Positions 2,271 through 4,386 of a stretch of 64,000 nt of DNA are shown here, piece by piece; the stretch's first letter is position 1, and each line of letters starts with the position of its first letter. Under the pieces are notes generated by a model. It made no database searches. It saw only the letters and a list, made by a program, of their open reading frames with translations, and had not been told where the DNA came from. The position numbers and the translations under genes are program-made. The DNA comes from Enterobacteria phage vB_EcoM_IME339, in sequence record MH051915. One strand, written 5' to 3'.

Positions 2271-2367
2271 ATATGCTTTAAGAATTATTTGTTATTATTA
2301 ACTCATACCGCACTGATTAATACCCTCTATCACCAAGGGCTCTTATTTGAGAGCCTTTGTTAATAAT

Positions 2368-2440
2368 TGGGAATTAGCCAAGTTGGTAAGGCACTGGATT
2401 TTGATTCCAGGATGCAAAGGTTCGAGTCCTTTATTCCCAG
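2368..2440 (+). tRNA. tRNA-Gln (anticodon UUG)
   Basis: Cloverleaf: acceptor tgggaat/attccca, anticodon loop tTTGat, T-arm ggttcgagtcc; CCA not encoded. Confidence 0.85.
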
Positions 2441-2441
2441 C

Positions 2442-2528
2442 GCGAGAATGGTCAAATTGGTAAAGGCACAGCACTTAAAATGCTGCGGAATGATTTCCTT
2501 GTGGGTTCGAGTCCCACTTCTCGCACCA
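2442..2528 (+). tRNA. tRNA-Leu (anticodon UAA), long variable arm
   Basis: Acceptor gcgagaa/ttctcgc perfect 7 bp, anticodon loop cTTAAaa, T-arm gggttcgagtccc, encoded CCA. Confidence 0.85.
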
Positions 2529-2533
2529 AATTT

Positions 2534-2607
<74 letters not shown>

Positions 2608-2617
2608 ATTTAATTTA

Positions 2618-2691
2618 CTCCGTGTAGCTCAGTTTGGTAGAGCGCCTGATTTGGGATCAGGAGGTCCAAGGTTCAAATCCTTGTATGGAGA
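2618..2691 (+). tRNA. tRNA-Pro (anticodon UGG)
   Basis: Anticodon stem cctga/tcagg with loop tTTGGGa, T-arm caaggttcaaatccttg; acceptor with two G-U pairs. Confidence 0.8.
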
Positions 2692-2693
2692 CT

Positions 2694-2783
2694 GGAGGCG
2701 TGGCAGAGTGGTTTAATGCACCGGTCTTGAAAACCGGCAGTCGCTCCGGCGACTCATAGGTTCAAATCCTATCGCCTCCGCCA
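2694..2783 (+). tRNA. tRNA-Ser (anticodon UGA), long variable arm
   Basis: Acceptor ggaggcg/cgcctcc, anticodon stem accgg/ccggt loop cTTGAaa, T-arm ataggttcaaatcctat, encoded CCA. Confidence 0.85.
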
Positions 2784-2788
2784 GTTTT

Positions 2789-2864
2789 GCTGATTTAGCT
2801 CAGTAGGTAGAGCAACTCACTTGTAATGAGAAGGTCGGCGGTTCGATTCCGTCAATCAGCACCA
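2789..2864 (+). tRNA. tRNA-Thr (anticodon UGU)
   Basis: Acceptor gctgatt/aatcagc, anticodon loop cTTGTaa, T-arm ggcggttcgattccgtc, encoded CCA. Confidence 0.85.
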
Positions 2865-2865
2865 A

Positions 2866-2940
2866 GGCCCTGTAGCTGGAAGGTTCAAGCAAGCGACTCA
2901 TAATCGCCAGATGGTGGTTCAATTCCACCCAGGGCCACCA
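2866..2940 (+). tRNA. tRNA-Ile (anticodon CAU, T4-type AUA reader; software may call it tRNA-Met)
   Basis: Acceptor ggccctg/cagggcc, anticodon loop cTCATaa, T-arm ggtggttcaattccacc, encoded CCA. Confidence 0.8.
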
Positions 2941-3045
2941 AATTAAGAATTAAGGGGAGTTATCCCGTAGAGGTAGCGGTGTGGACTGTAAATTCATTGT
3001 CATTGCGACTCGGGTGGTTCGACTCCCATCGGTCCCCCCCAATTA
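2941..3045 (+). ncRNA. candidate small stable RNA or degenerate tRNA-like element between tRNA-Ile and tRNA-Arg
   Basis: 105 nt spacer with T-arm-like gggtggttcgactccca and C-run, but no canonical cloverleaf could be drawn. Confidence 0.3.
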
Positions 3046-3121
3046 CGGGGCATAGCTCAGAAGGAAGAGCAAGGACCTTCTAAGTCCTAGGTCGTAGGTT
3101 CGATCCCTACTGCCTCGACCA
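3046..3121 (+). tRNA. tRNA-Arg (anticodon UCU)
   Basis: Acceptor cggggca/tgcctcg, anticodon stem aggac/gtcct loop cTTCTaa, T-arm gtaggttcgatccctac, encoded CCA. Confidence 0.85.
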
Positions 3122-3137
3122 ATTAAGTGAGGAAAAT

Positions 3138-3488
3138 ATGAAAGGTAATGTTTATTTAGTAGTTCATGATTTAACATTTTATTTTAATCACAATGACACT
3201 GTTATTTCTGAACGTGTAATTAATTTGCTTTATCAACATGCGGATTATGTTTATGTCGAAAACGAATATGGTCATTGGCAATTTCTCAAAAATCGTTCAT
3301 TTGGCTTAGATGGTTACGAATACTTTGAACGTAAAGACCTTTTAGATAAAATTTCGTTATCTACGCAATATCAAAATCACAAGTCTTTACACAAATGCCG
3401 ACTAATTCGAAATGCTGAATCTGCGTATGAAGCAATTGATTTATGGCGTAAACGCCGTGAACAGATTGATGCTTTAAAAGAATATTAA
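3138..3488 (+). CDS. hypothetical protein
   Basis: 116 aa ORF with gtgaggaaaatATG RBS immediately after tRNA-Arg. Confidence 0.5.
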   Translation: MKGNVYLVVHDLTFYFNHNDTVISERVINLLYQHADYVYVENEYGHWQFLKNRSFGLDGYEYFERKDLLDKISLSTQYQNHKSLHKCRLIRNAESAYEAIDLWRKRREQIDALKEY

Positions 3489-3489
3489 G

Positions 3490-3800
3490 AAACCGGGTCG
3501 CTACCGGTAAGTCGTCGGACTGATGTTCCCTGGGTAAGGACTGGCATTAACAAATCTTTACGATCTGTTAATGTCCCCTTACATCACAGCAGAAACGGCG
3601 CACAGAATTATCGATTCGAGGAAATATCTTTGCCGTAAGCCGAGTAGCGTTTTTGACGGAACGTTCGGATATGGTCGAGATATGGCCTTTTAAAAATATT
3701 GAGTAGCGTCAACTGCTTAATAACCGGGTTCGAATCCCGGCGTTTCGTACAAACACTTGCCTTAGCAGGTGGAACCCCGACAAGGTTGCCGCAAGGCTTA
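3490..3800 (+). ncRNA. candidate structured small RNA(s), analogous to T4 species 1/2 RNAs of the tRNA region
   Basis: About 310 bp without a credible ORF, relatively GC-rich, repeated gagtagcgt, tRNA-like T-arm aaccgggttcgaatcccgg, followed by terminator. Confidence 0.4.
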
Positions 3801-3829
3801 GCCCCGACCGAAAGGTTGGGGCTTTTTAG
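3800..3829 (+). terminator. intrinsic terminator hairpin
   Basis: agccccgaccgaaaggttggggc followed by ttttt. Confidence 0.6.
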
Positions 3830-3837
3830 TATAAATA
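3830..3837 (+). promoter_or_regulatory. T4 late promoter TATAAATA
   Basis: Exact TATAAATA about 40 bp upstream of the internal-protein-like gene at 3878. Confidence 0.55.
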
Positions 3838-3877
3838 TAGTAGTATATTAAATCCACGAATTAAAACAGGAAATAAG

Positions 3878-4351
3878 ATGAAATCATATGCTCAATTTTT
3901 AAATGAAGCGGTGTTAAATGAAGCATCTAGCACCGAAATTCAAGCTGTCGCAAAAGCAGCCATTGCAGCGGGTAAATATTCCTATAAAGATGCTTCTGAC
4001 GAATCACGATTCCAATTTGCTCGCGACATGAAAGCAGAAGGATTTACGGGAAATGCAGTTAGTATGGCCTGGAAAAGTTTAGTTGCTACTGGCGCTGCTT
4101 TTGCAAAGGCTTCGGGTAAACCTGCTCCTAAAGCAGATCCTAAAGCTGCACAAGAAAAAAATATCGTTAAAGGAATTATCTCTAAATATGAAGCTATCCT
4201 TAAAGAGCTTTTAGTAATCAAAACCGAAGGCCAAAAGCTAGCCCGTGCTTATAGTTTCAAAGATAATCCGCATGTTCACTCTCTTGAGTATGTTGAAGAC
4301 ATCCAAAAAATTATTAAAGACCGCATTTGGTCTGCTAAACAAATCAAATAA
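3878..4351 (+). CDS. internal-protein-like capsid-targeted protein (IP family)
   Basis: 157 aa; N-terminus MKSYAQFLNEAVLNEA resembles T4 capsid targeting sequence with LNE/A-type cleavage sites; Ala/Lys-rich body; late promoter upstream. Confidence 0.65.
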   Translation: MKSYAQFLNEAVLNEASSTEIQAVAKAAIAAGKYSYKDASDESRFQFARDMKAEGFTGNAVSMAWKSLVATGAAFAKASGKPAPKADPKAAQEKNIVKGIISKYEAILKELLVIKTEGQKLARAYSFKDNPHVHSLEYVEDIQKIIKDRIWSAKQIK

Positions 4352-4360
4352 CATTCTTAA

Positions 4361-4386
4361 CCCCAGCCGAAAGGTTGGGGCTTTTT
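4361..4386 (+). terminator. intrinsic terminator hairpin
   Basis: ccccagccgaaaggttgggg + ctttttgg. Confidence 0.65.

Follow-up and report, generated by a model that had tools for sequence, protein, structure and literature searches.

The distal end of the transfer RNA (tRNA) operon of Enterobacteria phage vB_EcoM_IME339 (sequence record MH051915) was found to hold three RNA elements on the + strand, namely a chimeric remnant of a tRNA-Tyr and a tRNA-His gene, and the genes rnaD and rnaC, known from bacteriophage T4 for the stable RNAs called species 2 and species 1. The whole stretch of 64,000 nt that was analysed is referred to as the window, and the interval in question lies at its positions 2941-3800. 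The identity of the three elements, and the folds described here for rnaD and rnaC, are held with high confidence. An original prediction, made from the sequence without database searches, had proposed that the interval contains either counterparts of the two small stable RNAs of T4 or degenerate tRNA genes, and each alternative turned out to be correct for one region: the first for the stretch at 3490-3800, through homology to annotated genes of T4 and RB33, and not for the 105-nt spacer upstream; the second for that spacer, a Tyr/His chimera that arose by deletion, and not for 3490-3800. The identification of rnaC and rnaD is a rediscovery of genes annotated in T4 for decades; what is newly added is covariation-supported structures for both RNAs, their phylogenetic spread and a corrected annotation.

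The region 2300-3900 matched more than 1,000 phage records and was 99% identical to Tequatrovirus genomes, such as those of Escherichia phage UGKSEcP1, Shigella phage ESh26 and ime09, and on this sequence evidence the window is assigned to Tequatrovirus, the T4-like phages. Eight + strand tRNA genes were called by ARAGORN and Rfam at 2368-3121 (Gln, Leu, Gly, Pro, Ser, Thr, a tRNA with anticodon CAU, and Arg), and this block is the T4 tRNA operon. The features of its distal end are listed in Table 1.

Table 1. Features at the distal end of the tRNA operon in the window
Feature	Position	Strand	Basis or description
tRNA with anticodon CAU (T4 homologue annotated tRNA-Ile)	2866-2940	+	ARAGORN; Rfam tRNA, 59.9 bits; T4 annotation
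Chimeric tRNA remnant	2954-3041	+	Alignment with the intact Tyr and His genes of UGKSEcP1 and with the CM8 hybrid
tRNA-Arg(UCU)	3046-3121	+	ARAGORN, Rfam
116-aa ORF (phrog_3355)	3138-3488	+	Between tRNA-Arg and rnaD; no Pfam match
rnaD (T4 'species 2' stable RNA)	3485-3605	+	Homology to annotated RB33 and T4 rnaD; 5' end T4-defined, putative
rnaD P1 hairpin	3492-3496/3504-3508	+	ACCGG-GUCGCUA-CCGGU, loop GUCGCUA
rnaD P2	3511-3517 with 3596-3603	+	GUCGUCG with CGGCG(C)AC near the 3' end
rnaD P3	3524-3527 with 3588-3591	+	UGUU/AGCA in T4-like phages
rnaD invariant UUCCCUG	3526-3532	+	Bridges P3 and P4
rnaD P4 hairpin	3531-3586	+	Length and sequence variable
rnaC (T4 'species 1' stable RNA)	3611-3749	+	T4 homology, Northern-probe match, model R1, covariation, minimum-energy fold
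rnaC acceptor stem	3612-3618/3741-3747	+	7 bp, CGAUUCG with CGUUUCG; covariation
rnaC D-position arm	3620-3628/3679-3687	+	GG-AA-AUAUC/GAUAU-GG-CC; encloses three stacked helices at 3632-3675
rnaC kissing loops	3653-3658 with 3707-3712	+	UUGACG with CGUCAA; tip of the D domain against the anticodon-position loop
rnaC anticodon-position hairpin	3697-3722	+	10 bp, 6-nt loop; one unpaired A before the T arm
rnaC T arm	3724-3740	+	CCGGG-UUCGAAU-CCCGG; runs straight into the acceptor 3' strand
3' trailer, 50 nt	3750-3799	+	Between rnaC and terminator; hairpin CACUUGC-CUUA-GCAGGUG, 56% G+C; conserved
Intrinsic terminator	3800-3828	+	10-bp stem, GAAA loop, U run; annotated terminator in Kha5h

Identity and folds of rnaC and rnaD

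Window positions 3489-3830 matched 804 phage records, 678 of which covered at least 80% of the query. The aligned annotations named rnaD and rnaC in T4 (AF158101) and in RB33, where rnaD is described as "species II RNA", and in Kha5h they named rnaC ("small stable RNA; species 1 RNA") and the terminator; the coordinates of both genes were transferred from the T4 and RB33 annotation. rnaC of the window is identical to T4 rnaC (139 nt; AF158101 70908-71046) at 137 of 139 positions (98.6%) and has the same strand, length and neighbours, with rnaD upstream and the trailer and terminator downstream. The two substitutions, C3676 (U in T4) and G3715 (A in T4, giving U.G for U-A), leave the structure unchanged. 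The sequence of the RNAC Northern probe used in T4 (PMC9697503) is that of window positions 3612-3669. The gene closes the operon, between rnaD and the terminator, on the strand of the tRNAs, and the numerous G.U pairs of its fold likewise identify the + strand as that of rnaC.

The comparative evidence gives good support to rnaC as an expanded tRNA-like cloverleaf, in which a long domain of three helices stands in place of the D arm. Folded as a single sequence with RNAfold, rnaC reached a minimum energy of -50.2 kcal/mol (z = -4.55), and the nested part of the model was reproduced. A covariance model, R1, built on the acceptor-stem structure formed by the 5' and 3' ends, scored the window copy at 168 bits, found no second copy in the window, and recovered divergent homologues at 64-84 bits in Jiaodavirus (KpV477), Mosugukvirus (PM2), Marfavirus (R3_1) and Kanagawavirus (KLB31, Kosakonia 305), giving a set of 20 homologues from at least seven genera. 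When these 20 sequences were aligned, 94.7% of the cells paired, against 34-44% with the partners slid, and 38 of the 51 pairs change on both sides, a number reached by none of 500 shuffles. A variable position of the acceptor stem is A-U in T4-like phages and G-C elsewhere, and its two central U.U mismatches become Watson-Crick pairs in KpV477 (CGGUAUG/CAUACCG) and PM2 (AGGUUCG/CGAAUCU). From the D-position domain an A/U-rich linker leads to the anticodon-position hairpin. The kissing pair covaries, being UUGCAG/CUGCAA in KpV477 and UUGGCG/CGCCAA in R3_1, which argues that the anticodon-equivalent loop is sequestered; with a 6-nt loop locked in this way by a 6-bp pair, rnaC cannot decode.

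Like a tRNA, rnaC is organised around a four-way junction, and its acceptor stem of 7 bp passes directly into a T arm of 5 bp, whose loop is UUCGAAU; the T-arm-like string noticed in the original prediction, AACCGGGTTCGAATCCCGG at 3722-3740, is a real T arm and part of this gene. Unlike a tRNA, it has a 6-nt 'anticodon' loop engaged in the kissing pair, a D-position domain of about 65 nt, two U.U acceptor mismatches and no CCA, and with a best Rfam score of 16.6 bits it does not pass as a functional tRNA, lying below the Rfam thresholds as does the spacer element. The repeated motif that had also been noticed, GAGTAGCGT, does occur twice (3642-3650 and 3701-3709), its copies sitting in two different rnaC helices that do not preserve it in distant homologues.

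An internal class-II tRNA reading of rnaC, with CGGAACG (3657-3663) as its acceptor, was dropped because the acceptor stem formed by the 5' and 3' ends covaries instead; the internal acceptor would contain an A.C mismatch in Karamvirus, and nothing corresponding to it is present in KpV477 or PM2. ARAGORN makes the same internal reading, which explains why the 3' ~95 nt of rnaC homologues are labelled tRNA-Met, tRNA-Phe or tRNA-Lys in SonariX (L028 2546-2640), KKP_3262 (L040 2950-3045) and G4507 (MK327946.1). These labels are mis-annotations, since the 'anticodon' differs each time and the internal acceptor stem is not conserved.

The labels, the class-II tRNA that ARAGORN draws at relaxed settings from the 3' 95 nt of rnaC, and the weak matches of R1 to real tRNAs could all be taken to mean that 3490-3800 consists of decaying tRNA pseudogenes without a function of their own, the T-arm-like piece being a fossil. 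We regard this as very improbable, and covariation has largely refuted it already. Beyond the poor conservation of the internal acceptor and the shifting 'anticodon', compensatory changes preserve all 139 nt of rnaC, non-tRNA domains included, in different genera, stable RNAs are made from both genes in T4 (PMC9697503), and no tRNA features were found in rnaD by relaxed ARAGORN.

That rnaC is a transfer-messenger RNA (tmRNA)-like molecule, or a tRNA mimic that can be aminoacylated in some other way, is equally improbable. The acceptor/T-arm module is present, and GCUUAAUAACC in rnaC resembles the stretch that closes the tag frame of E. coli tmRNA. This resemblance received no support from any model and the sequence varies, the 'UAAUAA' region lying in a covarying helix where it changes freely. 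ARAGORN called no tmRNA and Rfam gave no tmRNA match; position 3:70 of rnaC is A-U or G-C, not G.U, and the 3' end (...CGUUUCG-UA-CAAA) encodes no CCA.

rnaD of the window is 86% identical to T4 rnaD (119 nt; AF158101 71053-71171), with the differences concentrated in one hairpin (P4). The conserved core is identical, comprising the P1 hairpin, AAGUCGUCGGACUGA, UUCCCUG and UCACAGCAGAAACGGCGCAC, and the same helices form; the 3' flank is CACAG in the window and CACCA in T4. The minimum-energy fold of rnaD has -39.9 kcal/mol (z = -3.91 against shuffles). Its consensus fold was derived with RNAalifold from 26 T4-like, Dhakavirus and Vequintavirinae copies and with a covariance model, R2, extended to Karamvirus, Marfavirus, Mosugukvirus and others; R2 scored the window copy at 144 bits and found it to be the only one in the window. 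In the alignment 95.7% of the cells pair, against 30-44% when slid, and compensatory change is seen in 13 of 23 pairs. A fold of four helices around an invariant UUCCCUG is therefore well supported. The P1 stem is GCAGG/CCUGC, GCCGG/CCGGC or UCAGA/UCUGA in other phages, and P3 is UUUAAU/AUUAAA in Karamvirus and AGAAUU/AAUU(U)CU in KpV477. Covariation folding across phages, one of the checks put forward with the original prediction, thus revealed conserved secondary structure in both RNAs; folding against shuffles was positive for rnaC and rnaD and negative for the spacer (z = +0.25).

Several other features were sought in rnaD and set aside. A first helix, UGAUG/CAUCA, was rejected when only P3 (UGUU/AGCA) was seen to survive in the Karamvirus and Jiaodavirus versions. 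A resemblance to the hammerhead ribozyme (CUGAUG...GAAAC) gave no Rfam match at E up to 10, and its 'core' varies (CUGAAG, CUGAGA, CACUUU) and is partly paired in helix P3. For an anti-Shine-Dalgarno-like role of UUCCCUG, the complement CAGGGAAC was sought and found nowhere else in the window. The CGCUAC of rnaD at 3499-3504 (P1 loop and stem) is complementary to GUAGCG of rnaC at 3643-3648 and 3702-3707, part of GAGTAGCGT; this candidate contact between the two RNAs comprises just 6 nt, and no covariation was seen in it.

The stretch 3490-3800 had been described as GC-enriched and free of ORFs, and both descriptions hold: its G+C content is 47.6%, against 34.7% for the window, with only 0.7% of 311-nt segments as rich, and only short, unconserved ORFs cross it. 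Although ORFs of 40 and 50 aa exist (3571-3693 and 3699-3851), it is scarcely credible that they encode small peptides. The first spans the rnaD/rnaC boundary, a boundary that is nonexistent where phages carry the two RNAs apart, a C-to-T change truncates this ORF in T4, and substitutions track base-pairing, not codon patterns.

Both RNAs are widespread in the tRNA clusters of Straboviridae, and rnaD was also found in Vequintavirinae. Neither corresponds to an Rfam 15 family at the gathering score or at E up to 10, and, when a host origin or mimicry of the host was considered, neither showed similarity to any sequence in 5,426 E. coli genomes. Bacterial genome contigs were scanned for rnaD: a first pattern gave no matches, and a loose pattern gave at least 120 loci, of which the 80 scored with R2 included no match. 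At the operon end in T4-like phages, rnaC lies in Karamvirus between tRNA-Trp and tRNA-Gly with 5-nt spacers on each side, like a tRNA unit. rnaD starts 0-3 nt past a tRNA in T4 (Arg), in Karamvirus and Jiaodavirus (Asn) and in the Vequintavirinae phage A5-4 (Met and Tyr). Some phages have one RNA only, dhaeg carrying rnaD and not rnaC. These differing positions, together with the occurrence of one RNA without the other, suggest that rnaC and rnaD are independent modules.

Escherichia phage A5-4 carries two rnaD-like copies (L008 603-704 and 1497-1617; 99 and 116 bits with R2), although it belongs to an unrelated lineage of myoviruses. Each copy starts directly after a tRNA that is unannotated in that record, and the short copy has the P4 loop AGUUCCCUCAACGAUAAC in common with the Karamvirus versions. 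In the tRNA clusters of Karamvirus and Jiaodavirus, a conserved non-coding stretch without annotation (L006 534-673, L007 634-775, L040 1577-1718, L042 ~1577-1706) extends for about 140 nt beyond the rnaD-like element, which itself lies between tRNA-Asn and tRNA-Asp. This stretch includes, among other parts, a GAAAGUUUACUUUC hairpin and CCGGAAGG, and it may be a further structured RNA.

The tRNA-Tyr/tRNA-His remnant in the spacer

The gap between the CAU tRNA and tRNA-Arg, given as 105 nt in the original prediction, is exactly that by the ARAGORN ends (2941-3045). It had been described as holding tRNA-like pieces without a canonical cloverleaf, in line with which neither default ARAGORN nor Rfam at its gathering score called anything there. 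Alignment showed that the spacer element derives from the genes of tRNA-Tyr(GUA), a class II tRNA, and of tRNA-His. The sequence follows the 5' part of tRNA-Tyr from 2954 to 3024, through the T-loop GGTTCGACT, and then the 3' part of tRNA-His (3025-3041) and its downstream spacer, with the crossover inside a T-loop common to Tyr and His, GGTTCGAC (3016-3023). In UGKSEcP1, the closest relative, tRNA-Tyr, tRNA-Asn, a 113-nt spacer and tRNA-His lie between the CAU tRNA and tRNA-Arg. The junction is explained if about 267 bp were deleted between the T-loops of Tyr and His, which are nearly identical; this deletion would have fused the Tyr 5' part to the His 3' end with the loss of tRNA-Asn and the spacer. 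That non-tRNA spacer carries in relatives (L001 2321-2433) a promoter-like TTGACG...TATAGG string, which is deleted in the window.

The same junction was found in one other phage record, that of Shigella phage CM8, where it is a plain recombinant (97.4% identity), and in no IMG/VR contig, when the phage collection and IMG/VR were searched. Relative to CM8, the window copy has two changes, a C-to-T in the anticodon stem (G-C to G.U) and an A-to-CC in the 3' strand, the latter giving GGUCCCC-C-CCA facing the 5' strand GGGGAGU. The chimera had no RF00005 match, and its best Rfam match was to the tRNA-Sec model at 22.9 bits, against a gathering score of 47. The intact phage tRNA-Tyr scored 34.4 bits and is itself below threshold. 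Intact Tyr folds with its acceptor, anticodon and T stems, whereas both hybrids, that of the window and that of CM8, fold without an acceptor stem, and the minimum-energy fold of the window chimera is no more stable than its shuffles. Unlike a canonical tRNA, the element has an 8-nt T loop, mismatched acceptor and T stems and C73, and it falls short of a cloverleaf with a 7-bp acceptor stem, a 5-bp T stem and a 7-nt T loop that scores above the detector thresholds. We conclude that 2954-3041 is a tRNA pseudogene and not a structured RNA in its own right.

That the element still works as a tRNA-Tyr, the A-to-CC change having repaired it once the deletion had occurred, is an unlikely alternative to a pseudogene, and such small probability as is left to a crippled but working tRNA is there because that change resembles a repair: compared with CM8, the window hybrid has gained a G3-C70 pair and a proper N73-CCA end. 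The anticodon stem-loop is also intact (stem GUGGA/UUCAU, loop CUGUAAA, anticodon GUA), and at a relaxed threshold of 80% ARAGORN draws an 88-nt tRNA-Tyr, with the 8-nt T loop, a G.G mismatch (G6.G67) and C73. These last features tell against function, A73 being an identity nucleotide of bacterial tRNA-Tyr, as do the loss of the acceptor stem and the shuffle-like stability, the silence of default ARAGORN and Rfam, and the absence of the hybrid from all other records of the phage collection but that of CM8 and from IMG/VR. Moreover, just two changes separate it from the plain recombinant, and one of them, which lengthens a homopolymer, might reflect slippage or an error in sequencing.

The intact tRNA-Tyr(GUA) of T4-like phages (L001 2155-2241) has the tRNA-Sec model as its best Rfam match, below the tRNA gathering threshold, and in several records it is unannotated or marked 'pseudo', yet ARAGORN accepts it.

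Biogenesis and possible function of rnaC and rnaD

With the identity, strand and conserved folds of both RNAs and the tRNA-like acceptor/T-arm module of rnaC demonstrated, a route for their formation can be proposed. Both RNAs are probably produced by tRNA-processing enzymes. The operon transcript would run from the tRNAs through the phrog_3355 ORF, rnaD and rnaC to the terminator. RNase P would cut the rnaC precursor 5' of the acceptor stem, because that stem and the T arm together resemble a tRNA. Exonucleases would then shorten the 3' ends as far as P2 in rnaD and the acceptor stem in rnaC. The mature 3' ends lie 1-2 nt past P2 in rnaD and 2 nt past the acceptor stem in rnaC, as would be expected of exonucleases that stop at a stable helix. 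In the older T4 literature, a dimeric precursor of species 2 and species 1 is reported to accumulate in processing mutants and to be processed by RNase P. In the TMER units of MHV68, the tRNA-like domain of tmRNA and the bacterial Y-RNA-like YrlA, a tRNA-shaped module lets host tRNA enzymes process a non-decoding RNA. The YrlA (RF02553) and tmRNA models gave no match on rnaC or rnaD, and the YrlA matches in the region were weak and lay over real tRNAs; the partners of such RNAs, Ro/Rsr and SmpB, are not implicated for rnaC and rnaD, and E. coli is not known to have Rsr.

In T4, a Northern blot of RNAC has been reported, with stable RNAs from both genes and late accumulation kinetics (PMC9697503). 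The roles of the T4 stable RNAs have been stated to be unknown (PMC3014915); in all, three papers (2010, 2022, 2025) say so of the functions of rnaC and rnaD. It is a conjecture of low confidence that the mature RNAs act in trans as non-decoding tRNA mimics, decoys that would occupy or divert a host tRNA-binding factor, for which a processing enzyme or a defence nuclease that targets tRNAs would be candidates. A narrower version, in which rnaC presents its acceptor/T-arm face alone as a trans decoy or regulator of such a factor (candidates being a tRNA-targeting defence nuclease and a processing or modification enzyme) and rnaD belongs to the same pathway, is a little more doubtful. The only functional clue comes from a T4-like phage adapting to semi-permissive E. 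coli, in which one single nucleotide polymorphism (SNP) in rnaD was common to three lines (PMC12685909); this convergence hints at a host-specific role.

The main rival to a function in trans is a purely cis-acting role, which we rate no higher than that narrower version: rnaC and rnaD would serve the tRNA operon transcript as structured spacers, directing its processing or termination or guarding its 3' end, their stability being a by-product. Consistent with this, both RNAs are invariably found next to tRNAs, within a tRNA cluster or at its end, rnaC has exactly the acceptor/T-arm module that tRNA-processing enzymes recognise, and no trans target was found in the 5,426 E. coli genomes or, with CAGGGAAC, in the window. 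A processing handle would, however, need neither the D-position domain, of which about 45 nt are near-invariant, nor a kissing loop maintained by covariation; the positions in the clusters differ by genus, and dhaeg dispenses with rnaC. The late accumulation of the RNAs in T4 infection (PMC9697503) also speaks against a purely cis-acting role.

Several points weigh against the structures, the processing route and the function in trans proposed here. The larger alignments were produced by fitting sequences to the model and are therefore biased towards it, although the key pairs can be read by eye, and each variant of the kissing loop is a single sequence in the alignment (KpV477; R3_1). The T loop of rnaC is not universal, being UGCAUGC in CIP9-like phages, so that T-loop-specific recognition is not essential everywhere. 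T4 rnaD starts one nucleotide past tRNA-Arg; in the window the 351-nt phrog_3355 ORF intervenes, and the 5' end of rnaD therefore cannot arise as in T4 and must be made differently. In this phage rnaC and rnaD are known from sequence, the discrete stable RNAs having been observed in T4. The tRNA region of T4 is dispensable in laboratory hosts. Finally, the rnaD SNP may have pre-existed in the phage stock (PMC12685909).

Flanking sequences and implications for annotation

The stop codon of the phrog_3355 ORF (3486-3488) overlaps the T4-defined start of rnaD. Neither T4 nor RB33 carries the ORF at this position; between the Ile and Arg tRNA genes T4 instead carries segB. The layout of tRNA-Arg, phrog_3355 ORF and rnaD recurs in UGKSEcP1, ime09, Kha5h and CM8. 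The phrog_3355 family also adjoins tRNAs in Karamvirus clusters (VIPECLOM01).

Downstream of rnaC, the trailer is kept in Dhakavirus phages without rnaC, where it directly follows rnaD. The terminator that had been predicted to follow the second stretch was located, its hairpin at 3800-3823 being followed by TTTTT, and it ends the tRNA and stable-RNA transcription unit. Just past it, at 3830-3837 and upstream of ORF 3878-4351 (phrog_2280), lies TATAAATA, the T4 late-promoter consensus. The terminator-like hairpin CCCCAGCCGAAAGGTTGGGG recurs, near-identical, after this ORF (4361-4380).

Gain and loss of tRNA genes by recombination is ordinary in the tRNA clusters of T-even phages, and the 105-nt gap should carry the annotation tRNA pseudogene (Tyr/His chimera). 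Positions 3485-3749 should be annotated as rnaD and rnaC; in most of the ~800 related genomes the two genes are left blank, or rnaC is mis-called as a 95-nt tRNA-Met, tRNA-Phe or tRNA-Lys. The T4 map has included rnaC and rnaD since the 1970s, and their function is a 50-year-old question. Handles on it are now provided by the tRNA-like build and the kissing loop of rnaC, by the rnaD core with its invariant UUCCCUG and by the phylogenetic spread of both RNAs, and the covariation-backed folds can guide mutate-and-rescue and pull-down experiments as well as the curation of an RNA family model.

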